UHGV virus genome: UHGV-1877853 | Origin: a virus | Reading direction: 5' to 3' (one strand) | DNA length: 12,158 nucleotides | Shown: positions 1 to 12,158 of the stretch, one piece after another | Position numbering within the stretch: the first letter of the stretch is position 1 | How the letters are laid out: every line of letters starts with the position of its first letter | Program-made: the position numbers and the translations under genes | The notes under the pieces: model-generated | Told to the model about the DNA's origin: nothing | The model's database searches: none | Seen by the model: only the letters and a program-made list of their open reading frames with translations

Positions 1-176
1 CTGGCGGCATTCAGGAGAAGGTTTTCCCACAGGGTGCGAAGATAAACATCTTTCGACCATGACTGTTTCAGAATGCTCCGGTACAACGGAATGTAACCAG
101 TTTTCTGGTTCTCCATCCTGTTGCTCCTGCGCTCGTGTGCGGCGCTGAAATCGTAGATTTTTGCTGTATTGCTCAT
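1..176 (-). CDS. Replication initiator O-like protein, N-terminal fragment (continues beyond window start)
   Basis: Minus-strand ATG at 176 immediately downstream of the cII-like stop; translation MSNTAKIYDFSAAHERR... resembles the lambda O N-terminus (MTNTAKI...) and sits in the O position after cII. Partial; not in the ORF track because it runs off the window. Confidence 0.5.
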   Translation of the reverse strand, partial: MSNTAKIYDFSAAHERRSNRMENQKTGYIPLYRSILKQSWSKDVYLRTLWENLLLNAA

Positions 177-178
177 AA

Positions 179-556
179 CTACCTGCCTTGACGAAAGACC
201 TTAAGAACATCGTTAAACTGACTTACGGATATGTCTTCTTTGAGCAGCTTTTCCAGAAATGCGTTTGGAATGAACGTATATCCATCCTCTTTTGGTAGAG
301 ACGGGAGCAACGCCCTCGCCTCAGCCTTCAGAAGCTCAGTTCTGGCAACTTTCACAAAAGAGATTTGAGTTCTTTCATCAATGGAACGAGCAAGCAGCAT
401 TGAGACCTTTGGAATCCAGTCCCTCTTCCACCTGCTGATCTGCGACTTATCAACTCCCACAGCTTCCGCTGTCTTCTCAGTTCCAAGCATTGCGATTTTG
501 TTAAGCAACGCACTCTCGATTCGTAGAGCCTCGTTGCGTTTGTTTGCACGAACCAT
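179..556 (-). CDS. cII: CII-like transcriptional activator with a non-lambda C-terminal region
   Basis: From MVRANKRNEALRIESALLNKIAMLGTEKTAEAVGVDKSQISRWKRDWIPK the first ~50 residues match lambda CII as recalled; after ...SMLLA the sequence diverges and runs 70 more codons to a TAG at 179..181. Start chosen at the ATG at 556 (MVRANK), not the upstream in-frame ATG at 616. Confidence 0.65.
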   Translation of the reverse strand: MVRANKRNEALRIESALLNKIAMLGTEKTAEAVGVDKSQISRWKRDWIPKVSMLLARSIDERTQISFVKVARTELLKAEARALLPSLPKEDGYTFIPNAFLEKLLKEDISVSQFNDVLKVFRQGR

Positions 557-635
557 ATGTAAGTATTTCCTTAGATAACAATTGATTGAATGTATGCAAA
601 TAAATGCATACACCATAGGTGTGGTTTAATTTGAT

Positions 636-667
636 GCCCTTTTTCAGGGCTGGGATGTGTAAGAGCG
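636..667 (-). promoter_or_regulatory. nutR: nutR (boxB hairpin 636..650, boxA 659..667) between cro and cII, with the tR1 region downstream on the minus strand
   Basis: Minus-strand reading gives CGCTCTTAC (boxA) followed by GCCCTGAAAAAGGGC (boxB dyad), matching lambda nutR as recalled. Confidence 0.75.
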
Positions 668-674
668 GGGTTAT

Positions 675-884
<210 letters not shown>

Positions 885-901
885 TTAGTACATGCAACTA
901 T

Positions 902-965
902 TATCACCGCTAGAGGTAAAATAGTCAACACGCACGGTGTTAGATATTTATCCCTTGCGGTGATA
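902..965. promoter_or_regulatory. Right operator OR1 (902..918), OR2 (926..942), OR3 (949..965) with divergent pR (toward cro) and pRM (toward cI)
   Basis: Three 17-bp lambda-type operator sites of TATCACCGC-type half-site symmetry between the divergent cro and cI starts; cI begins at ATG 976 with no obvious Shine-Dalgarno sequence (leaderless pRM arrangement). Confidence 0.85.
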
Positions 966-972
966 GATTTAA

Positions 973-1689
<717 letters not shown>

Positions 1690-1807
1690 CCACAATACAA
1701 CCTTGTTGTCGCAAAAAGATCGCATATGCGATTGTTTATTAGAAATAGAAATCGCCATATAGGCGAATAGTCGATCTCAGTGCATAACATAAGGAAATCA
1801 ATAACAT

Positions 1808-2713
1808 ATGCCAAATTTACCGATGGGCGGATCGCAGGGTGAATTACCCTTAGTACCTACAGTAGAAGTTGTTGCTGATGGCATTCCTATGGGGGTGCTT
1901 AATGATGGAACCCCTTATCTAACTCTTTACGGTTTAGCCAAATTATGTGGCATAGATGAAGCACCTCTTCGAATGTTTACATCTAACTGGGAGACTGAAA
2001 AAAATAAGCCAAGAGGACAAAAAGTAGCTGCATACTTAGCTGAGAAAGGATTTAACAACGTTGACCGACTGTATACCCGCGTCATAAATAGCTCAAACGT
2101 TGAAACACATGCTTATCCTGACTATGTTTGTATGGCTATCCTCCGTTACTACGCTCTAGATGCCACCAATTTTGATAGGTCAGTCGCAATAGGTAATTTT
2201 GTTCGCTTGGCTGAGTACACGCTTAAGCGAATGATTTATGAAAAGTCAAATTACAACCCAAATGCTTCAATAGATATCTCATTCGAGAACTATAGAGCAA
2301 GGATTAAGCTAAACGATCAGATACCGACAACTCATTTTGCAGTATTCAGAGAGATAGCTGACATTGCCATGAACCTGATCGGAGGAGGATTCCCAATGGA
2401 TGACACCACATCTTTGGATGGAAGTGTTGGAATTCACTGGGGAAAGTATTGGACAGCTAATGGCCTATCTGAGAAATTCGGGGAAAGGGTGCAGTACCCA
2501 CATCTATTCCCCGAAAATTACAGGCAGTCAGCTGCAAATAAGCATATAAAAGCTTGGATTTATCCTATTGAGGCACTTGGCGTGTTCAGAAAATGGCTAC
2601 ACGATAATTACGCAATGGAAAAACTGCCAAATTACCTTGGGAACAAAAAGATTAGTAATGCCTCCGAGCTATTAGAGTTGATAAAAAAACCAGCACTCCC
2701 AAATAAGCATTGA
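1808..2713 (+). CDS. Hypothetical 301-aa protein occupying the rexA/rexB slot; possible KilA-N/Bro-N-like N-terminal domain; candidate prophage-encoded exclusion/abortive-infection protein (BstA-like hypothesis)
   Basis: Long ORF on the cI strand with an AAGGAA ribosome-binding site 7-8 nt upstream, followed by an intrinsic terminator. The region is visibly AT-rich compared with flanking lambda-like DNA. The translation does not resemble RexA or RexB as recalled. Confidence 0.8.
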   Translation: MPNLPMGGSQGELPLVPTVEVVADGIPMGVLNDGTPYLTLYGLAKLCGIDEAPLRMFTSNWETEKNKPRGQKVAAYLAEKGFNNVDRLYTRVINSSNVETHAYPDYVCMAILRYYALDATNFDRSVAIGNFVRLAEYTLKRMIYEKSNYNPNASIDISFENYRARIKLNDQIPTTHFAVFREIADIAMNLIGGGFPMDDTTSLDGSVGIHWGKYWTANGLSEKFGERVQYPHLFPENYRQSAANKHIKAWIYPIEALGVFRKWLHDNYAMEKLPNYLGNKKISNASELLELIKKPALPNKH

Positions 2714-2725
2714 TCTCCACCACAA

Positions 2726-2750
2726 CCCGGCATCTGCGCCGGGTTTTCTT
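2726..2750 (+). terminator. Rho-independent terminator ending the cI-cargo transcription unit (tImm-like position)
   Basis: CCCGGC (2726..2731) / GCCGGG (2738..2743) stem with a 6-nt loop, followed by TTTTCTTT. Confidence 0.6.
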
Positions 2751-2892
2751 TGCCTAACGCCCCCAAAAAACACATAACCAATTGTATTTATTTTAAAATT
2801 AATAGATACAACTCGCTAAACATCGCAATTCATATCTCTCGATCACCTTCCCAATCCACACAACCCTGCAAAAAATAAATCTATATAAAAAA

Positions 2893-2964
2893 CATACAGA
2901 TAACCATCTGCGGTGATAAATTATCTCTGGCGGTGTTGACATGAATACCACTGGCGGTGATACT
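2893..2964 (+). promoter_or_regulatory. Left operator OL3 (2893..2909), OL2 (2922..2938), OL1 (2946..2962) and promoter pL (-35 TTGACA 2936..2941, -10 GATACT 2959..2964)
   Basis: Lambda-type operator sites readable in the DNA; 17-bp spacer between the -35 and -10 hexamers; oriented toward N. Confidence 0.85.
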
Positions 2965-3003
2965 AAGCACATCAGCAGGACGCACTGACCACCATGAAGG
3001 TGA

Positions 3004-3034
3004 TGCTCTTAAAAATTAAGCCCTGAAGAAGGGC
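3004..3034 (+). promoter_or_regulatory. nutL: nutL (boxA-like TGCTCTTAA 3004..3012; boxB GCCCTGAAGAAGGGC 3020..3034)
   Basis: boxB dyad matches lambda nutL as recalled; boxA differs at its first base from the remembered CGCTCTTAA. Confidence 0.75.
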
Positions 3035-3191
3035 AGCATTCAAAGCAGAAAGCTTTGGTGTGTGTGATACGAAACGAAGCATTGGCCGGAAGTGCGAATC
3101 CGGATTAGCTGCCAATGTGCCATTGCGGGGTGTTTTCGTTCAGGAATACGACTCCCACACACAACCAAAGCTAACTGACAGGAGAATCCTG

Positions 3192-3518
3192 ATGGATGCA
3201 CAAACACGCCGCCGCGAACGTCGCGCAGAGAAACAGGCTCAATGGAAAACAGCAAACCCCCTGTTGGTTGGGGTAAGCGCAAAACCAGTTAACCGCCCTA
3301 TTCTCTCGCTGAATCGCAAACCGAAATCACGAGTAGAAAGCGTACTGAATCCGATAGACCTTACAGTGCTGGCTGAATACCACGAACAGATTGAAAGCAA
3401 CCTGCAGCGTATTGAGCGCAAGAATCAGCGCACATGGTACAGCAAGCCACGCAGTGAAATGGGTGTGACTTGTGTTGGTCGCCAGAAAATGAAATTAGGC
3501 AGCAAACCACTTATTTGA
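3192..3518 (+). CDS. N: Antitermination protein N (lambda-like, C-terminal region diverged)
   Basis: Translation from MDAQTRRRERRAEKQAQWK... matches the lambda N arginine-rich N-terminus; GGAG ribosome-binding site upstream of ATG 3192. The track ORF 3060..3518 is an in-frame upstream extension through nutL. Confidence 0.9.
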   Translation: MDAQTRRRERRAEKQAQWKTANPLLVGVSAKPVNRPILSLNRKPKSRVESVLNPIDLTVLAEYHEQIESNLQRIERKNQRTWYSKPRSEMGVTCVGRQKMKLGSKPLI

Positions 3519-3529
3519 GAGGAATTAAT

Positions 3530-4153
3530 ATGTCATCAATCCGCTTAACTACGAGAATGAAAGAGGAAATCGCTCGTAACGCTTTAATTAAGTCTGGGGT
3601 TTTCACTGAACTTGAAGAAGTAACAAAGTTAAAGAACCAGCTTGCACTTGACGCCAGAGTTATTGCGTTTGGCGGGAAAAAGAAAACTGAGGAAGTTGAT
3701 CAGTTATCATCCAAGTTGGTAGCTATAAGTGAAGAACTTGAAAAGATGGGATGTTCATTTTACTCATACGATGTTCGTTCTACTTCAATTTATCTGACTG
3801 CATCTGGCAGAAGGATTGGATGGCATTCATATGGGAAAGACGGCAACGGCGAAGATATATTGCTCCCTACTCCGAACAAAGATAAATGCATGTTTAGCGC
3901 AGAACACGAAATAACAAAAAGGTTTGATGAAATCTGCGCATTGCAACAAAAACTTGAAGCCAAGAAAAAGGATATCGAATCAAATGTATGGGCTGCTTTG
4001 AACTCAGTCACAACAGTTAAGCGACTTATTGAGGTTTGGCCTGAAAGCAAAGAATTGCTACCAAAAGAAGCAGATAAAGCAAGTACAGCACTTCCTGCTT
4101 TACGGGTAGAAGATTTGAATAAGATGATTGGACTTCCTTCCGAGGCCGCATAG
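3530..4153 (+). CDS. Hypothetical 207-aa protein immediately downstream of N (ral/sieB slot)
   Basis: ATG 3530 with a GAGAGG ribosome-binding site that overlaps the N stop; AT-rich; followed by a hairpin and T-tract. No family recognised. Confidence 0.75.
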   Translation: MSSIRLTTRMKEEIARNALIKSGVFTELEEVTKLKNQLALDARVIAFGGKKKTEEVDQLSSKLVAISEELEKMGCSFYSYDVRSTSIYLTASGRRIGWHSYGKDGNGEDILLPTPNKDKCMFSAEHEITKRFDEICALQQKLEAKKKDIESNVWAALNSVTTVKRLIEVWPESKELLPKEADKASTALPALRVEDLNKMIGLPSEAA

Positions 4154-4168
4154 TCGGCCTTTATTTTT
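4143..4168 (+). terminator. Rho-independent terminator
   Basis: AGGCCG (4143..4148) / CGGCCT (4155..4160) stem, then TTATTTTT; the stop codon of the upstream gene lies in the loop. Confidence 0.55.
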
Positions 4169-4216
4169 GGCATAAACAACAGAATAAACACTGCACTGAA
4201 TTATTTGAGGTGAGAT

Positions 4217-4687
4217 ATGACAAAATCACGGAGCGTACCTTTTCCTGAATCAGAAACTGAACATAATGGAATGCCTGTTTTCTGGAGATTCCAAGCGACA
4301 GTTGAAGAAGATGGAATCAAAATATTCGCACTTCAATATATAGCTTTTCATCAGACAGAGCATTATGCATGGTTGGTTCCTGCGCATTGGATTGTTGATT
4401 TTAAACCAGCACCAAATCAGTGGTTACAGGAATGGAAACAAAGGAGAAATAGATATGCAATTAAGAAAGTAGCAAAAAATGCAGAAAGATCTTTTGCATT
4501 CCCAACGAAGAAACTTGCTATTGAAAGTTTATTGCGTCGGAAGAAATACCATTTAATGAGAATAAAACAAGATTTGGCTGTTGTATCAACTCTTGTTGAT
4601 GGGATGAAAAATATTGATACATCAATACCAGATATTGAATATAACTTTGGACACAACCAAGAAACAGAAAATTGGGTATTTTATTAG
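4217..4687 (+). CDS. Hypothetical 156-aa protein
   Basis: ATG 4217 preceded by a GAGGTGAG ribosome-binding site; AT-rich; followed by a hairpin at 4702..4729 and a terminator at 4791..4816. No family recognised. Confidence 0.7.
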   Translation: MTKSRSVPFPESETEHNGMPVFWRFQATVEEDGIKIFALQYIAFHQTEHYAWLVPAHWIVDFKPAPNQWLQEWKQRRNRYAIKKVAKNAERSFAFPTKKLAIESLLRRKKYHLMRIKQDLAVVSTLVDGMKNIDTSIPDIEYNFGHNQETENWVFY

Positions 4688-4790
4688 TACGAATAAGCAC
4701 TGTGTATTCATTCCAACGAGTGAATACACGGAGCAATGTCGCTCGTAACTAAACAGGAGCCGACTTGTTCTGATTATTGGAAATCTTCTT

Positions 4791-4816
4791 TGCCCTCCAG
4801 TGTGAGGGCGATTTTT
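4791..4816 (+). terminator. Rho-independent terminator
   Basis: GCCCTC (4791..4796) / GAGGGC (4803..4808) stem followed by a TTTTTT run. Confidence 0.5.
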
Positions 4817-4837
4817 TATCTATGAGGATATGAATAG

Positions 4838-5206
4838 ATGTCAAACATCAAAAAATACATCATTGATTACGACTGGAAAGCATCAATAGAAATTGAAATC
4901 GACCATGACGTAATGACAGAGGAAAAACTTCACCAGATTAATAATTTCTGGTCAGACTCTGAATACCGACTCAATAAACACGGCTCTGTATTAAATGCTG
5001 TATTAATCATGCTGGCGCAACATGCTCTGCTTATAGCAATTTCAAGCGACTTAAATGCATATGGTGTTGTGTGTGAGTTCGACTGGAATGATGGAAATGG
5101 TCAGGAAGGATGGCCTCCAATGGATGGTAGCGAAGGAATAAGAATTACCGATATCGATACATCAGGAATATTTGATTCAGATGATATGACTATCAAAGCC
5201 GCCTGA
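4838..5206 (+). CDS. Hypothetical small strongly acidic protein (122 aa)
   Basis: ATG 4838 with a GAGGA ribosome-binding site; by eye about 22 Asp/Glu against about 8 Lys/Arg; tightly followed by the next gene. Confidence 0.7.
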   Translation: MSNIKKYIIDYDWKASIEIEIDHDVMTEEKLHQINNFWSDSEYRLNKHGSVLNAVLIMLAQHALLIAISSDLNAYGVVCEFDWNDGNGQEGWPPMDGSEGIRITDIDTSGIFDSDDMTIKAA

Positions 5207-5240
5207 GAGCGTTTTTAAAGAATACAACGAAGGAGGATAT

Positions 5241-6209
5241 ATGAGTGAAGTAACAGATTTAGTTGTTATTGAAAAATCAAATGCAATGACTGTATTTCAG
5301 TCTGCCGACCAGATTGAAGAAATCCTTCAAAAGGTTGAACGTGAAGTTATGTCCTTTGTTCCTGATATCACAACGGCAAAGGGCAGGAAGGAGATCGCTT
5401 CTCTGGCGTATAAAGTTGCGCAGACGAAAACATATCTCGATGGTCTTGGCAAAGACCTTGTTGCTGAACTGAAGGAAATTCCAAAGCTAATTGATGCCAA
5501 CCGCAAGACAGTGCGTGATCGCCTTGATGAGCTGAAAGCCAAGGCACGCCAGCCTCTTACTGATTATGAGGAAGAACAGGCGCGGATTAAAGCCGAAGAA
5601 GAAGCTAAGGCAGCAGCTGAAGCTCTCGCAAAGCAAATTGAGTCTGACCATGAAATAGCTATTTTGATGGATCGCGAATTTGACCGCCAAAGAGAAGAGG
5701 CAAGACTCAAAGCGGAGCAGGAAAAGCGAGAGCATGAAGAACGCTTAAAAAGAGAAGCTGAAGAGAAAGCCAGAGCAGAAGCCGAAGCAAAGGCAAAAGC
5801 CGAAATTGAAGCAGCAGCAAGGCGAGAAGCAGAAGCTAAGGCCGCTGCGGAACGAGCAGAGCGTGAACGCATTGAAGCCGAGCAACGAGCACAGCGCGAA
5901 GCAAAAGAGGCAGCAGAACGAGCTGAAAGAGAAAAGCAGGCAGCAATTGAAGCAGAACGCAGAAAAGCACAGGAGGAGGCTGAACAAATCCGTCGCGATG
6001 CTGAAGCAAAAGAGCAAGCCAGAATAGCAGAAGAAAAAAGAATCAAGGACGAAGAAGAGCGTAGAGCAAAGGATAAAGCTCACCGGAAAGAAGTTAATAA
6101 CAAAATACTTGCTGACCTTATCAAGGTTGGCGCATCAGAAGATGTTGCTAAAAATATCATAACAGCCATCGTAAAAGGCGAAGTATTCGCAACAAAAATA
6201 ACCTACTAA
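5241..6209 (+). CDS. Hypothetical 322-aa protein with a globular N-terminal domain, a long E/R/K/A-rich predicted single alpha-helix or coiled coil, and a short C-terminal domain
   Basis: ATG 5241 with a GGAGGA ribosome-binding site; about 170 residues of EAKA/EREA-type repeats between residues ~110 and ~280. Confidence 0.75.
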   Translation: MSEVTDLVVIEKSNAMTVFQSADQIEEILQKVEREVMSFVPDITTAKGRKEIASLAYKVAQTKTYLDGLGKDLVAELKEIPKLIDANRKTVRDRLDELKAKARQPLTDYEEEQARIKAEEEAKAAAEALAKQIESDHEIAILMDREFDRQREEARLKAEQEKREHEERLKREAEEKARAEAEAKAKAEIEAAARREAEAKAAAERAERERIEAEQRAQREAKEAAERAEREKQAAIEAERRKAQEEAEQIRRDAEAKEQARIAEEKRIKDEEERRAKDKAHRKEVNNKILADLIKVGASEDVAKNIITAIVKGEVFATKITY

Positions 6210-6233
6210 TAAAACCAACATAAGGAACCACCC

Positions 6234-6365
6234 ATGATTTACGCAATCGCGGGAGGCGCTCGCATGGGTGCCTTCCAACTAAATGAATCTTTACTTGAAC
6301 GAATCACCCGTAAATTACGTGACGGATGGAAAAGAGTTGAGGTCTTATTATGCGCAATGAAATAG
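6234..6365 (+). CDS. cIII: CIII-like protein (FtsH inhibitor family)
   Basis: 43-aa ORF (under the 60-aa track cutoff) with an AAGGAA ribosome-binding site; central motif ESLLERITRKLRDGWKR matches lambda CIII as recalled. Confidence 0.75.
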   Translation: MIYAIAGGARMGAFQLNESLLERITRKLRDGWKRVEVLLCAMK

Positions 6366-6502
6366 CCATCAATCACCAGATGCTTCGTGCTGCACAGAAC
6401 AAAGCAGTAATAGCCAGATTTATTGGTGATTCCAAAATGTGGCTTGAAGCAAATAAAGCGATGAAATCAGCTATCAACCTTCCGTGGTATCGCAGGAAAT
6501 GA
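6350..6502 (+). CDS. kil: Kil-like small protein
   Basis: 50-aa ORF overlapping the cIII 3' end; the motif IARFIGDSKMW resembles the lambda Kil motif (IATFIGDEKMF) as recalled; position after cIII fits. Confidence 0.5.
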   Translation: MRNEIAINHQMLRAAQNKAVIARFIGDSKMWLEANKAMKSAINLPWYRRK

Positions 6503-6669
6503 GTTTCACAGATAACTGGTCAGACGAAGAATTCATTCGTCAGATGAAAGAATTAATCGGTAACGAAGGAGATATTCATGTCACTTGCAACCACAGTGAA
6601 GGAGAGCAAGTTACAGAGACGCATGTACACGCAGCAGGCGTTAATGTATCGCCAGAAGGGAGATCGTGA
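6499..6669 (+). CDS. Hypothetical small protein, translationally coupled to the kil-like gene (ATGA overlap)
   Basis: ATG 6499 overlaps the kil-like TGA stop; 56 aa; sits in the arf position of P22-type operons but the sequence was not recognised. Confidence 0.4.
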   Translation: MSFTDNWSDEEFIRQMKELIGNEGDIHVTCNHSEGEQVTETHVHAAGVNVSPEGRS

Positions 6670-6758
6670 AGGTGTGCGCGTATTTTTAAATGCGGCAAAG
6701 ACTGAAGTATTAAATCAGCGTTATTTCCTTGGGCCATGTCCATTCTGAGAACAAACAT

Positions 6759-7364
6759 ATGAGTAAAGAATTTTACGCAAGACTGGCAGCTATTCAGGAG
6801 AATCTGAACGCGCCAAAGAATCAGTACAACTCATTCGGTAAATATAAATACAGAAGCTGCGAAGACATTCTTGAAGGCGTTAAGCCGTTACTGAATGGCC
6901 TGTTTTTATCAATCAGCGATGAAGTTGTGTTGATTGGTGATCGGTATTACGTAAAAGCCACGGCAACTATTACCGATGGCGAAAACAGTCATACGGCAAC
7001 CGCTCTTGCACGAGAGGAAGAAAGCAAGAAAGGAATGGATTCTGCACAAGTTACTGGAGCTACAAGCTCTTATGCGCGCAAGTATTGCCTCAATGGTTTG
7101 TTCGGCATTGATGATGCGAAAGATGCAGATACCGACGAACATAAACATCAGCAGAACGCAGCAGCAAAGCAATCAAAACCATCACCTACACCTGAACAGG
7201 TTCTAAAAGCATTCACTGACGCAGCAATGCAAAAAAACACCGTGGAAGAGCTTAAACAGGCGTTCGCCAAAGCGTGGAAGATGCTCGAAGGAACACCGGA
7301 GCAGCACAAAGCGCAGGACGTTTACAACATCAGACGTGACGAATTAGAAGGAGCGTCTGCTTAA
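6759..7364 (+). CDS. erf: Erf single-strand annealing recombinase (P22 Erf family)
   Basis: Translation from MSKEFYARLAAIQENLNAPKNQYNSFGKYKYRSCEDILEG... matches P22 Erf as recalled; start at ATG 6759 rather than the upstream in-frame ATG 6729. Confidence 0.85.
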   Translation: MSKEFYARLAAIQENLNAPKNQYNSFGKYKYRSCEDILEGVKPLLNGLFLSISDEVVLIGDRYYVKATATITDGENSHTATALAREEESKKGMDSAQVTGATSSYARKYCLNGLFGIDDAKDADTDEHKHQQNAAAKQSKPSPTPEQVLKAFTDAAMQKNTVEELKQAFAKAWKMLEGTPEQHKAQDVYNIRRDELEGASA

Positions 7365-7747
7365 TGGCACATTCGATTACTGTAAGACTAAACAAGCCCG
7401 CAAGAGAGTTTCAGGCCGGGGAAAATATCGGATTCAACATCCGTGCTGGCGTTCAGTATTACGATCGCCAGACAAAAAAGAAAGAATGGACAAACTACAG
7501 CGCCGTTGTATTTGCCAAGCCGGGAGCGCAAGCGGATTACTACCGTAGTGTTCTTGTTGAAGGTGGCATTGTGGAAATTACCGGAGAAAACATCAGGGTT
7601 GATGTTTATCAGGGGCAAAATGGTCAATCAATCACTCTTGAATTACTGAATGCAAAGATTGGATTTGCAGCTTCAGGAAATGGCCCGCAGCAGCAAAGTA
7701 GTAACCAGCAGAACACTCCTGTATACGACGATTCCATCCCATTCTGA
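7364..7747 (+). CDS. SSB-like OB-fold protein with a host-SSB-like acidic C-terminal tail (..YDDSIPF)
   Basis: ATG overlaps the erf stop (TAATG); C-terminus ends DDSIPF, resembling the E. coli SSB tail DDDIPF; Gln/Gly-rich linker before the tail. Confidence 0.65.
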   Translation: MAHSITVRLNKPAREFQAGENIGFNIRAGVQYYDRQTKKKEWTNYSAVVFAKPGAQADYYRSVLVEGGIVEITGENIRVDVYQGQNGQSITLELLNAKIGFAASGNGPQQQSSNQQNTPVYDDSIPF

Positions 7748-7770
7748 TTTAGAAAAATAAGGATTTAATT

Positions 7771-8064
7771 ATGCCAGCGCCTCTGTATGGTGCGGATGAC
7801 CCACGCCGCTGTTCCGGCAATTCCGTATCGGAGGTGCTGGATAAATTCAGGAAAAACTACGACCGGATAATGTCGCTACCGCAGGAAACGAAAGAGGAAA
7901 AGGAATTTCGCCATTGTATATGGCTTGCAGAGAAAGAAGAACTAGAGCGAATTTACCAGACATCAATCCGACCATTCCGCAAAGCCACATATACCCACTT
8001 CCCTGAAATTGACCCGCGCCTGCGTAATTACCGCTCACGCTATGGCGCTATCAGTAATGACTGA
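7771..8064 (+). CDS. Possible Abc2-like anti-RecBCD protein (97 aa)
   Basis: Position downstream of erf and 97-aa size fit P22 Abc2; the sequence match is from uncertain memory. AAGGA ribosome-binding site. Confidence 0.45.
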
Positions 8065-8074
8065 GGAATTTACC

Positions 8075-8239
8075 ATGAGAGGACTTGCATACAATCCCGG
8101 TATTCTTCCGGCAGAAATGATTATTCGCCAACGCGTAAAGCCAATGCCATCGAGAGAGGAATTGCTTAAAAGAAATAGTTTCGGTTCTGTTAATGACAAC
8201 AAATATCTGAATGCGATGTTGCGGAGTGGGAAAAAATGA
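8075..8239 (+). CDS. Hypothetical small protein (54 aa); start could alternatively be ATG 8057
   Basis: GAGG ribosome-binding site 7 nt upstream of ATG 8075; stop overlaps the next start. Confidence 0.4.
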
Positions 8240-8709
8240 AACAAATGTCACTAATTGAGATGGATGGTTTTCTGAAAGGTAAATGCATCCCAAGTGATTT
8301 AAAGGTTAACGAAACAAACGCTGAATATCTGGTGCGTAAGTTCGGTGAGCTTGAATCAAAACTGGAAACGGCGTTGCGGGAGTGTCGTTCTGCTGGAATC
8401 ACGATTGATAACCTTGAGGCCAAGTGCGCGGCGCTGGCAGCGAAGAGTGCGGGGCTGAAAAAGTTCTGTGAAGACGCAGCGTTTGATGCTGATTATGAGT
8501 CAGAACTTCTTGGAGAACGCGGTGGATTTGTTGATGGGCTTAGCTTGGTAAAAACCCCAGCCACCGACGCTTTCCTGGCTGAAGTACGGGCGCATGGCGT
8601 GGAGATGGCTATGGAGCATATGCAGTCGAGCGGTTCGTTAACATTTGGAGATTGCTACATATCACTTAACGAGTTCGCCGCAGAGCTTCGCAAAGGAGGC
8701 AACCAGTGA
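8236..8709 (+). CDS. Hypothetical protein (157 aa)
   Basis: ORF in the tightly packed early-left array; ATGA overlap with the upstream gene. Confidence 0.6.
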
Positions 8710-9374
8710 GCAAGATTGACTATCAGGCACTGCGTGAGTTAGCAAAACAGGCAACACAGGGCGAATGGGTCGCATTTATTTCGCCGGGTACTGGTACGTA
8801 TGCGGTGCATACACCTGGTGATAAACGATGTGAAGACGTTATCAAATGGACCGGCTTTGATGGACAGAACAACGCAGAGAACAACGCTCGTTATATCGCA
8901 GCTTTCAACCCTGAAGTAGTGCTGGCACTACTGGATGAACGGGAAAGAAACCAGCAATACATCAAACGCCGTGACCAGGAGAACGAGGATATTGCGCTAA
9001 CGGTAGGGAAGCTGTTAATCGAAAACGGTCAGCTTGTTGCCGATACGCTACGCCACTTAGCTGATAACGAAATCGACTCTGATTATTTTGCTATCACCTC
9101 AACTAATGAGAACGGTACTGAAATTGATCATGAGATGTCTATTACCGATTACGCACTGCAAGCTGCCGGAACTGTAGACGAATTGGTTGCGGCGCTGGAA
9201 TCCGCAGAGAAGCGCATAGCAGAACTGGAAGCGCGGGAAATACTGCTCCCGGAACGTAGCAGCATGCTTCATCGAACAGATTTTCACGATGATTACCAAA
9301 CGGTAATGGCATACAAAGTTTCTGAAGTCATCGCTGCAATCCGCGCCGCTGGTATTCGCATCAAAGGAGAGTGA
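8706..9374 (+). CDS. Ead/Ea22-like family protein (222 aa)
   Basis: GTG start at 8706 with a strong AGGAGG ribosome-binding site 7 nt upstream; N-terminal ALRELAKQATQGEW motif is typical of Ead/Ea22-like prophage proteins. Confidence 0.6.
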   Translation: MSKIDYQALRELAKQATQGEWVAFISPGTGTYAVHTPGDKRCEDVIKWTGFDGQNNAENNARYIAAFNPEVVLALLDERERNQQYIKRRDQENEDIALTVGKLLIENGQLVADTLRHLADNEIDSDYFAITSTNENGTEIDHEMSITDYALQAAGTVDELVAALESAEKRIAELEAREILLPERSSMLHRTDFHDDYQTVMAYKVSEVIAAIRAAGIRIKGE

Positions 9375-9375
9375 T

Positions 9376-9951
9376 ATGACCACTATAACCGATAAGAAAC
9401 AGTATCCCAGCGATCAATATCTTAATGAGCTGGTCACCAACATGGAGTTTGCTGCAAGGGCACCAGTTGAAGTCGTGAGAGCGATGGCAGCAGAGCTACA
9501 GAAGCGGCGCGAAGCTGATAGTGCAGAACCTGTAAGCCAAACTTACAACTTGCCAGAATTAATCGAAGGCATGGAAGTTTCCATTGATGTAAGCACTTGT
9601 GATGCTGATTTAGGTAATCGCTATTTCGGCACCGTCACCGAGGCGTTAGAACTTGATACAGCCAAGAATGGTTACATCCTCTTGGTTCAGGACGCAGAGC
9701 CAAACTTCGATGTAAATGGCAACTCTCCGGTAACTCCGGATGGTTGGATAAGCTGTAGTGAGCGAATGCCAGATGATGGTCAGCACGTAATTATTTTATG
9801 TGATGGCGCATTCGTTCTTTATGCGCAATATCGAGACGGAGAGTTTTTCGATATTGTCCGCAATGGTGATGAATTTTTCGAAACACAGAGTCGCAATGTA
9901 ACCGACTGGATGCCTCTACCAGAACCGCCGAAGGAGGTTAACCGTGGCTAA
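9376..9951 (+). CDS. DUF551-like prophage protein (191 aa)
   Basis: C-terminal W.SCSERMPDDG...TDWMPLPEPP motif is characteristic of DUF551 proteins; GGAGAG ribosome-binding site. Confidence 0.6.
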   Translation: MTTITDKKQYPSDQYLNELVTNMEFAARAPVEVVRAMAAELQKRREADSAEPVSQTYNLPELIEGMEVSIDVSTCDADLGNRYFGTVTEALELDTAKNGYILLVQDAEPNFDVNGNSPVTPDGWISCSERMPDDGQHVIILCDGAFVLYAQYRDGEFFDIVRNGDEFFETQSRNVTDWMPLPEPPKEVNRG

Positions 9952-10228
9952 CCTGCAACTTGCCGTCAAAGGTGAATACTTCGATGCCATGATTCGCGGA
10001 GAGAAAACGGAAGAGTATCGCCTGTGTAATGACTACTGGAATAAGCGAATTATGTTCCGGGAGTATGACCGCCTGATTATCACAAAGGGATATCCGAAGC
10101 GTGACGATTCCAGCCGCAGAATTGACGTTCCGTATGGCGGTTATGAAATAAAGACAATCACACATCCCCACTTCGGCGATAAACCGGTAAAGGTGTTCGC
10201 GATAAAGGTGAATATCGACACTGAATAA
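9944..10228 (+). CDS. ASCH/PUA-like small protein (94 aa)
   Basis: GTG start with an AAGGAGG ribosome-binding site; N-terminal L.VKGEYFDAMIRGEKTEEYR pattern resembles ASCH-domain proteins; followed by two hairpin terminators. Confidence 0.5.
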   Translation: MANLQLAVKGEYFDAMIRGEKTEEYRLCNDYWNKRIMFREYDRLIITKGYPKRDDSSRRIDVPYGGYEIKTITHPHFGDKPVKVFAIKVNIDTE

Positions 10229-10263
10229 CAATCCTCGCACTCGCGGGGATTTCTTTTATCTGA

Positions 10264-10287
10264 ACTCGCTACGGCGAGTTTTGTTTT
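10264..10287 (+). terminator. Rho-independent terminator (second of two tandem hairpins after 10228)
   Basis: ACTCGC / GCGAGT stem with a TACG loop followed by TTTTGTTTT; preceded by a CCTCGC/GCGGGG hairpin with TTTCTTTT at ~10233..10257. Confidence 0.5.
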
Positions 10288-10300
10288 ATGGAGATGATAA

Positions 10301-10468
10301 ATGCACTTCCGAGTCACAGGTGAATGGAATGGAGAACCATTCAACAGAGTTATCGAAGCAGAGAACATCAACGACTGCTATGACCACTGGATGCTATGGG
10401 CGCAGATAGCACATGCAGACGTAACCAATATTCGAATTGAAGAACTGAAAGAACACCCAGCCGCCTGA
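10301..10468 (+). CDS. Hypothetical small protein (55 aa)
   Basis: ATG 10301 with a GGAG ribosome-binding site; bracketed by terminators; under the track size cutoff. Confidence 0.4.
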   Translation: MHFRVTGEWNGEPFNRVIEAENINDCYDHWMLWAQIAHADVTNIRIEELKEHPAA

Positions 10469-10480
10469 TGGCGGTTTTTT
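10459..10480 (+). terminator. Rho-independent terminator
   Basis: AGCCGCC / GGCGGTT stem with a TGAT loop followed by TTTTTT. Confidence 0.5.
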
Positions 10481-10491
10481 GGGGGTAGTAG

Positions 10492-10707
10492 ATGGCTGCA
10501 ATTCACATTGTATCAATAACATGCAATGCAATTCAGATAGTTGCTTGCATTATCTTTGTTTTCTCAATCCTTCGCTCCCGACGATATTCTCCAGCAATTA
10601 ACCGACATCCTGCTCAGGTTGAAGCCGTCAGGATGGCTATAGAGTTACGAAAGGAGATGAATAAGGCATTAATGGAGATGGAGAAACCATTCACTGACAA
10701 ACATTAA
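10492..10707 (+). CDS. Hypothetical small protein with a hydrophobic N-terminus (71 aa), possible membrane peptide
   Basis: ORF followed by a related terminator-like hairpin (~10767..10790); weak ribosome-binding site. Confidence 0.35.
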   Translation: MAAIHIVSITCNAIQIVACIIFVFSILRSRRYSPAINRHPAQVEAVRMAIELRKEMNKALMEMEKPFTDKH

Positions 10708-10807
10708 GAGTGGAAATAAAGAAATCACACCGCCTCACACTCGATGAGGCCTGTACATATCTGATAGAGCCGCTATATGGCGGTTTCTTTTTGCCTGGAG
10801 AATTAAG

Positions 10808-10999
10808 ATGACCGATACCAGCCTGATTCCTGAGAAAGAAGTGATGAACAAGCTCGGTGTTTCATCACGTCAGACAATCTTGAACTATACCAAACGGCAC
10901 GGATTTCCGAAGCCAGTCAGAACCCACCCAAAATCATACCTTCGTGAAGCTGTTGAAGGGTGGATTCTTAACGGTGGCGTTAACCAGAAATGCTCCTGA
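10808..10999 (+). CDS. xis: Excisionase-like small DNA-binding protein (AlpA/Xis family)
   Basis: 63 aa; GGAG ribosome-binding site; family-level resemblance to AlpA-type excisionases; directly adjacent to and converging on the integrase. Confidence 0.6.
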   Translation: MTDTSLIPEKEVMNKLGVSSRQTILNYTKRHGFPKPVRTHPKSYLREAVEGWILNGGVNQKCS

Positions 11000-12158
11000 T
11001 GTGCCAGAACAATTTATCAGCGTGAAGCTCATAAGCTTTGCGCTGAGCCTCTATCCAGTCGTGTTTATTGTACACGGACATTATCCCGCCAAGTTCATGA
11101 CCGAGCATTCGCTCAGTAACATGAGGCTCGACATTCATCTCGGACAGACGTGTAACAAGCGTTCTTCTGAAATCATGTGTTCGCCAGTAACCTAGATCCA
11201 TCCCTCCCCTTATTCTATTTACGAATCGGTTGGCTGCAGCGATGCTGATCGGTTTGTTTATGTCTTCTCCAGGGAAAAGAACATCATTGTACGTTGTCAT
11301 GGTCTTTTCGAGAAAAGGCTTAATTTGTTCGAAGATTGGACGACGGATAACATTACCCATCTTGCTATGCTCTTTCGGTACGGTCCATACGTTGTCCAGC
11401 AGGTCAAATTCTGTCTTTGTTGCCAGCCTAAGCTCTGAGAGCCTCGCCCCCCACAGCATAAGCATCTGATGAAGTAGCTTATTTGACGTAGACGCACGGC
11501 TTCTTTCAATAGCAAGCCAAATCTTAGCCAGTTCGTGATACGACAGTACCCGATCCCCTACCTCAGCGCGGGAGCCGAAGTCCCTTGGTTGGATGCTCAT
11601 AATTGCGCAACTATCTATCAACTGACGCCGCATGCACCAACTTATTGCTGATCTTAGTTGACTTAGCACCTGCCTTGCTCGGCGTGGATTATCTCTTTCT
11701 TCTTCGGTAAGCAGGTCAACCCATTGCTTAACCGTGATAGAAGATGCCGGACGATTAGGAAAGGCGTCATGCATGCGCTTCATAACCGTTGATCGGTAAA
11801 GTGCCTGGGTCTTTTCTCTGAGAGTTGTAGAGACGTAGTTGTCGAACCAGTAGTCGAGACACTGGGCGACCGTCATGGAGTTCTCCACCTTCTCTTCAAA
11901 ATAGGTGCGTGGATCCGTTCCTGAGAAATAGAGCTTTCGCAAGTCAGCAGTGATCTGTCTGGCATCCTTCAAAGACAGGGATGGGTATCGACCAAGCCCA
12001 AGTCGATTAGGCTTGCCATGCCAGCGATAGCGGTACTGGAACTGGATGACCCCCTTCGGTGAAATTCGTATGCTGAGGCCATCGGCATCAGCCACTTCTT
12101 GTGGGCCCGAATATGGTTTACCATAAATAGTACGCAGTTTTGTGTCGCTTATAGCCAT
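10980..12158 (-). CDS. int: Tyrosine-type site-specific integrase (P4-like architecture with N-terminal arm-binding domain)
   Basis: 392 aa; C-terminal catalytic signature (HDFRRT ... LGH ... SVYNKHDW with the presumed catalytic Tyr); the N-terminal pattern GL.IRISPKG...FQYRYR is typical of P4-family integrase arm-binding domains. The start codon lies at the window edge (12156..12158). Confidence 0.9.
   Translation of the reverse strand: MAISDTKLRTIYGKPYSGPQEVADADGLSIRISPKGVIQFQYRYRWHGKPNRLGLGRYPSLSLKDARQITADLRKLYFSGTDPRTYFEEKVENSMTVAQCLDYWFDNYVSTTLREKTQALYRSTVMKRMHDAFPNRPASSITVKQWVDLLTEEERDNPRRARQVLSQLRSAISWCMRRQLIDSCAIMSIQPRDFGSRAEVGDRVLSYHELAKIWLAIERSRASTSNKLLHQMLMLWGARLSELRLATKTEFDLLDNVWTVPKEHSKMGNVIRRPIFEQIKPFLEKTMTTYNDVLFPGEDINKPISIAAANRFVNRIRGGMDLGYWRTHDFRRTLVTRLSEMNVEPHVTERMLGHELGGIMSVYNKHDWIEAQRKAYELHADKLFWHIRSISG

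Follow-up and report, generated by a model that had tools for sequence, protein, structure and literature searches.

A private 211-bp deletion as the most likely origin of an in-frame cII::orf90 fusion in a lambda-immunity prophage of Escherichia coli

The chimeric cII gene described here is best explained by a private 211-bp deletion in the resident lambda-immunity prophage of a metagenome-sampled E. coli, which would have created a cII-null allele in the form of an in-frame fusion to the downstream gene orf90; the probability of this reading is put at roughly two in three. The sequence analysed, referred to below as the window, is a stretch of 12,158 nt corresponding to positions 1-12158 of ENA ERZ651994 NODE_343_length_15199_cov_4.50647, a metagenome contig that has a k-mer coverage of 4.5 and is on record for two samples. 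The fusion gene is situated 179-556 nt from the end of this contig. Most likely it represents an ordinary private deletion allele of a well-known gene, an origin as an artefact being less likely.

The protein encoded by the fusion is 125 aa in length (Table 1). A longer version of 145 aa, starting from an upstream ATG at 616, appears in a mechanical listing of open reading frames; the start of lambda cII with its AAGGA Shine-Dalgarno sequence corresponds to 556, not to the ATG at 616. Of residues 1-56, 55 agree with the lambda CII chains of PDB entries 1xwr, 1zpq and 8igr, F51V being the sole difference, and this segment matches profile positions 1-56 of the 91 in Pfam Phage_CII (PF05269) with an E value of 6.2e-27. 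This agrees with the preliminary description of this DNA, made from the sequence alone, which had recognised about 56 codons of the lambda CII N-terminus with an F-to-V change, and which was also right in giving 125 aa against 97 in lambda with an unrelated continuation of about 70 codons, as the last 69 residues (RSIDERTQISF...VFRQGR) are non-CII. These match positions 21-90 of the 90 in the PHROG 2519 profile (E = 1e-41), and in an alignment of 16 CII and 12 orf90 proteins the tail aligns solely with orf90. Such an open 69-codon tail had been thought unlikely to occur by chance, and it is indeed not a chance open reading frame, because it is the genuine frame of the conserved neighbour orf90.

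Table 1. Features of the 12,158-nt window around the cII::orf90 fusion
Feature	Position	Strand	Basis
5' end of replication initiator gene (O-like/DnaD-like), runs off the window	1..176	-	translation; ZH063 annotation
125-codon fusion ORF (cII codons 1-56 + orf90 codons 22-90 + stop TAG 181..179)	179..556	-	translation
orf90-derived part (codons 22-90 + stop)	179..388	-	100% identity to ZH063 L001 2024-2233; PHROG 2519
Deletion junction, 211 bp missing relative to intact relatives	389..390	.	alignment to ZH063; breakpoint scan and flanking sequence
cII-derived part (codons 1-56, encoding the helix-turn-helix domain plus the first residues of the next helix)	390..556	-	window 406 as the sole difference from ZH063 cII; PDB lambda CII 1-56; Pfam
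Private coding-strand change T>G (TTC>GTC, F51V), at a distance of 16 nt from the junction	406..406	-	base comparison with ZH063
TTGC-N6-TTGC CII recognition repeat of pRE, TTGCGTTTGTTTGC	534..547	+	sole match in the window
cro	675..875	-	ORF; Pfam Cro on the contig
cI repressor	976..1689	+	ORF; HTH_3 and Peptidase_S24; identical to the ZH063 copy
BstA_C-domain gene	1808..2713	+	precomputed Pfam (PF26567)
N, Nmad5 gene, cIII, kil, erf, anti-RecBCD gene and others (in the window, listed after the BstA_C gene)			
Integrase	10980..12158	-	

The window covers a lambdoid prophage's early-left and immunity region, and all of its open reading frames match annotated genes of the prophage in E. coli ZH063 (NZ_CP014522.1), which has the intact locus at 2245251-2246161. 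The contig runs on through int into sbcB, IS200 tnpA and plaP in exactly the ZH063 arrangement, there being 1 mismatch in 3000 nt. As the chromosomal flank is continuous past int, the prophage is an integrated one, and the source is the lambda-immunity prophage that ZH063 and similar E. coli strains carry beside sbcB. An engineered cII-fusion expression vector was considered as a source and rejected, the contig being a complete integrated prophage arm with chromosomal flank. The order of genes in the intact pR operon is cro, cII (97 aa), orf90 (90 aa), replication initiator and helicase, and the ZH063 annotation at this locus correspondingly lists a 97-aa cII, a 90-aa hypothetical protein and then a replication protein, the gene for which matches PHROG 345 'replication initiation O-like' with an E value of 6e-100. 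A possible start of the replication gene in the window, the ATG at 176..174 (MSNTAKI...), lies 2 nt past the stop codon of the fusion, while the RefSeq start is 60 nt further in.

Other parts of the immunity region were also inspected. The CII recognition repeat TTGCGTTTGTTTGC, which we take to be the lambda pRE site, is intact; it lies within cII, at the 5' end of the gene, and on the same strand as cI. A second TTGC-N6-TTGC site was not found anywhere in the 12-kb window, including its integrase end, and because none lies near that end, the int promoter of this prophage may not be CII-dependent in the manner of lambda pI. The prophage cI begins MSAKKK, where that of lambda presumably begins MSTKKK, and otherwise appears to us to be wild-type lambda cI. 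Directly 3' of cI, in the place where lambda has rexAB, is a 301-aa gene on the plus strand; its BstA_C domain is also present in some RefSeq annotations, and a separate Pfam scan at E ≤ 0.1 gave no matches for it. Probably this gene provides abortive-infection defence of the BstA kind and is expressed from the prophage. In the pL operon, the gene for the antiterminator N is closely followed by that for a putative nucleotide-modification protein of the Nmad5 family (PF18757), at 3530-4153 on the plus strand, within the open reading frame 3470..4153.

Base-by-base comparison of the 12,158 nt with the ZH063 prophage revealed three SNPs and a single contiguous gap of 211 bp, which pairwise alignment places at 389/390; the remainder is identical. 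The claim that the protein is a chimera with its junction inside cII is thus borne out, and the breakpoint is mapped; the notion of a substituted C-terminus is not, since the tail is not foreign, having come from the same prophage's downstream gene by an internal deletion. Nor does the tail correspond to any known cII allele, or does any simple frameshift restore the lambda reading frame, the two findings named beforehand as telling against a chimera. The missing segment spans cII codons 57-97, the terminator tO, a 22-nt spacer, and the start and codons 1-21 of orf90, such that its loss would join cII(1-56) to orf90(22-90) in frame. That 211 is not a multiple of three does not prevent this, because cII and orf90 occupy different frames. 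Base 389 could have come from either parent gene. The lambda-type oop terminator hairpin tO, located by a terminator scan on the opposite strand (L001 1914..1887), falls within the deleted segment and is missing from the window. A simple promoter scan of the intact relative detected no sigma-70-like pO, the oop promoter, and a scan of the same sequence with Rfam, which has no oop model, returned nothing at E ≤ 1.

The exact microhomology at the junction amounts to 1 nt. An imperfect direct repeat lies beside the deletion end points, with TGCTGCTTGCT in cII and TGCGCTTCCT in orf90, and a same-orientation 211-bp deletion by an imperfect repeat is typical of those arising in vivo. The three SNPs are at 406 (F51V), 2464 (synonymous) and 8443 (K/E). 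The alleles at the latter two positions are common to an independent metagenome scaffold, ERZ28648406, and hence F51V and the deletion are the sole private changes of the 15.2-kb contig. By our own arithmetic, the probability that one of three SNPs in 12 kb should fall so near the junction is below 1%, which implies that the two changes are linked, whether through a single complex mutation or through a single faulty read; F51V probably arose in the same mutational event as the deletion.

The gene that contributes the tail, orf90, encodes a 90-aa protein (WP_001576829.1 in ZH063) that is a full-length member of PHROG 2519, a family of unknown function. Its 90%-identity cluster contains 500 members, and the E. 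coli, Shigella and Salmonella contigs on which these occur number over 1000. Among homologues at 68-88% identity, the length stays at 86-90 aa and the FRQGR end is conserved, and orf90 is therefore a genuine gene. The fusion is not itself a full-length PHROG 2519 protein, for which a length of about 86-90 aa and an own start would be expected, as it covers only positions 21-90 of the 90 and the start and codons 1-21 are deleted. The last approximately 35 residues of orf90 (DGYTFIPNAFLEKLLKEDISVSQFNDVLKVFRQ, window 179-285 on the minus strand) weakly resemble the N-terminus of replication protein O, at the sub-threshold levels of E = 0.01 for PF04492 and E = 0.006 for PHROG 678; naming a function for orf90 from this likeness was rejected, these values being insufficient. 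The adjacent replication gene can start MSNTAKI..., resembling lambda O, which begins MTNTAKI. The sequences hint that orf90 might be the remnant of an old O-gene fragment, left after an exchange of the replication module.

The level of occurrence of the allele in other genomes was also studied. The window is 99.9% identical to the prophage in 16 complete E. coli genomes (e.g. ZH063, SaT040 and an O25:H4 strain), and in 16/16 the match is split into two pieces. More broadly, both halves of the fusion are covered in 202 complete E. coli genomes, always as two pieces, and the junction is present in 0 of 5,426 such genomes. Searches of phage records likewise found no junction, and a 33-mer across it was not found in JGI metagenome contigs, IMG/VR or GTDB species genomes. 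The fusion protein forms a one-member cluster, from one contig, among approximately 15 billion proteins, its exact sequence being recorded solely on ENA ERZ651994 NODE_343. Position 51 is F in 87, L in 6, M in 3 and C in 1 among 134 representative homologues, with V unique to the fusion; the DNA allele encoding V51 occurs in none of the 825 complete E. coli genomes that have this segment of cII, nor in IMG/VR.

CII is a tetramer, a dimer of dimers that reads a direct repeat (PMC9986795; PMC3053222), and it must form this specific dimer-of-dimers arrangement to do so (PMC9986795). Truncated proteins delimit the portion of CII needed for activity: CII1-92 and CII1-87 complement, whereas CII1-77, 1-67, 1-57 and 1-47 do not, and with them the toxicity and plasmid-loss phenotypes of CII are gone (PMC5869508). 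Work cited in the same paper places the limit between CII1-81, which is functional, and CII1-80, which is not, and the FtsH tag is assigned to the C-terminal 16 residues (PMC5869508). An AF2 model of wild-type CII, of moderate confidence (pLDDT 63.5), has helices at 2-24, 26-33, 37-61 and 65-79, with 81-97 disordered. The family to which CII belongs activates pRE, pI and paQ as a tetramer. The fusion possesses the N-terminal helix-turn-helix DNA-binding domain of this family and its place behind cro in the pR operon, where the pRE repeat TTGC-N6-TTGC overlaps the 5' end of the gene. It lacks the C-terminal tetramer-core helix (profile positions ~57-91), codons 57-97 being deleted, and the residues of the ~16-residue C-terminal FtsH (HflB) tag are also absent. 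Judging from secondary citations and the AF2 model, the deleted residues 57-97 would hold the last helix that builds the tetramer core as well as the FtsH tag; we infer from their loss that the fusion is unable to tetramerise or to activate pRE.

By analogy with truncations that carried no added tail, the fusion is most likely a cII-null allele, which would also be without orf90 and tO/oop. The lack of a tetramer would mean no activation of pRE, and hence a cII allele of the clear-plaque type. As cI is intact, the prophage could be maintained without CII; maintenance, being cI-dependent, should be unaffected, and it is the establishment of lysogeny after induction and reinfection that would be crippled. 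The in-frame nature of the fusion would mean that ribosomes still stop 2 nt upstream of the possible start of the replication gene, and it is a matter of speculation that any translational coupling to that gene is kept in this way. One feature counts against a null allele: the AF2 model of the fusion (pLDDT 73) contains confident orf90-derived helices at 61-86, 98-106 and 111-123 (pLDDT 77-92), and this helical part could in principle supply some oligomerisation.

Other fusions of the same two genes can be found. One of these, P0021 (L005 3001-3381, Logan SRR34862735_56), joins cII and orf90 in frame for a second time, independently and in a prophage with another immunity. Here the deletion begins within the oop terminator, past cII codon 85, and reaches approximately orf90 codon 56, with 24 nt of filler DNA. 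P0021 lies near the end of its contig. Unlike the window allele, P0021 might, by analogy with the truncated proteins, encode a stabilised and active CII, because it keeps CII 1-85, past the 1-81 limit, and has lost the FtsH tag. In addition, six singleton open reading frames of 194-196 aa (P0017, P0018, P0019, P0022, P0023 and P0027) join a full-length cII-type gene to orf90 through a 1-nt shift in the AAAAAA run of tO (L001 ~1885-1895). Such a shift suffices for read-through because the open frame of orf90 reaches back a long way into cII, and these cases probably reflect homopolymer sequencing errors or sporadic mutations. That independent cII::orf90 fusions are on record implies that small lesions in this interval are not unusual.

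The alternative with the greatest weight, although still unlikely, is that both the deletion and F51V come from a chimeric or polymerase-jump read, generated in library PCR or amplification and carried into a low-coverage assembly near a contig end. Consistent with such an origin are the k-mer coverage of 4.5 and the position of the gene within 556 nt of the contig end, the one-member protein cluster with a junction and a V51 that are found nowhere else, and the 16 nt that separate the two private differences of a 15.2-kb contig, as from one bad read. On the other hand, library chimeras seldom link points 211 bp apart in the same orientation, an assembler would normally keep the better-supported path if the true path were covered several-fold, and a junction with 1 nt of homology cannot be made by a de Bruijn assembler. 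Furthermore, the remaining contig is essentially error-free relative to independent genomes and is on record for two samples, and P0021 provides an independent natural deletion in the same interval. The deletion in a resident prophage is accordingly preferred. The preliminary description can be said to have recognised the chimera and the loss of the tetramerisation part and of the FtsH degradation tag, which follows from the deletion of codons 57-97, and to have mistaken the source of the tail and its effect; it was incomplete in that the allele is a singleton on a 4.5x contig with an appreciable chance of being artefactual.

Two further explanations were weighed, and both are improbable. The fusion could be a functional neo-allele in which the CII helix-turn-helix, held by the helical orf90 part, acts as a stable activator or as a DNA-binding competitor that shifts the balance between lysis and lysogeny. 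The preserved frame, the intact helix-turn-helix and pRE site, the confident prediction of a long helix, together with a small helical unit, in the orf90 part, and the absence of the FtsH tag are all in its favour. Against this, CII cut at residue 80 or shorter is inactive, there is no indication that orf90 22-90 reproduces the dimer-of-dimers geometry of CII, an in-frame outcome is expected by chance in one of three cases, and the allele, a singleton, shows no sign of having spread or been selected. With the fusion model as query, Foldseek retrieved lambda CII (1zs4) alone from the PDB, and the orf90 part had no match. The altered lysis-lysogeny control originally proposed is thus less likely than a loss of CII function, given that CII1-77, 1-67, 1-57 and 1-47 are inactive (PMC5869508). 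Marginally less credible again is the specific form in which the orf90 helices replace the oligomerisation helix and the missing FtsH tag makes the protein long-lived; if true, the lysis-lysogeny decision would be uncoupled from the protease status of the host. A recurrence of in-frame fusions, if this one and P0021 amount to that, might reflect selection as opposed to accident. Least probable of all is modular exchange, whereby the tail would be a natural alternative cII C-terminus from another lambdoid phage. Lambdoid cII genes do have at least two C-terminal types, one of 97 aa as in lambda and one of 92 aa that ends in GEFFEA, but the DNA of the tail and that of the gene following cII in this prophage are 100% identical, so that the alignment to ZH063 refutes this origin; moreover, the tail matches PHROG 2519 and no CII family, and it is on no other CII homologue save the sporadic frameshift and deletion fusions.

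Hence an apparent chimeric regulator in a metagenome contig is explained, by alignment to its nearest intact relative, as a private deletion and not as a novel combination of domains. Provided that the deletion is real, this is one more resident prophage without a gene needed only to establish lysogeny, and clear plaques would be expected after induction, together with poor lysogenisation. No new question about CII is opened.

In comparison with lambda CII (PF05269; PDB 1xwr, 1zpq, 1zs4 and 8igr), the fusion gene has the same place after cro, nutR and tR1, and the same Shine-Dalgarno sequence and pRE site; it differs in being without residues 57-97, in having F51V and in bearing a 69-residue tail from another gene. 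In comparison with the PHROG 2519 gene, which many P22-like, Stx2a and other lambdoid prophages have between cII and the replication gene, the fusion ends in the same 69 residues and stop codon as the ZH063 copy and still directly precedes the replication gene; the start, the ribosome-binding site and codons 1-21 of the PHROG 2519 gene are gone, such that what is left of it would be translated only as a tail of CII. The 195-aa fusions P0017-P0019 and the deletion fusion P0021 also join the same two genes through a small lesion in the 3' end of cII or tO, although the junctions differ, and P0017-P0019, unlike the window allele, keep both genes at full length. The closest counterpart of the CII part is the engineered CII1-57 (Viruses 2018, PMC5869508), the end point of which is almost the same. 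The phenotype expected for the fusion is that of CII1-77, 1-67, 1-57 and 1-47 and of the classical cII clear-plaque mutants, with no activation of pE/pRE and no toxicity or plasmid loss; in contrast to the engineered truncations, it carries a foreign helical tail and, as a deletion allele, would have arisen spontaneously in a prophage.
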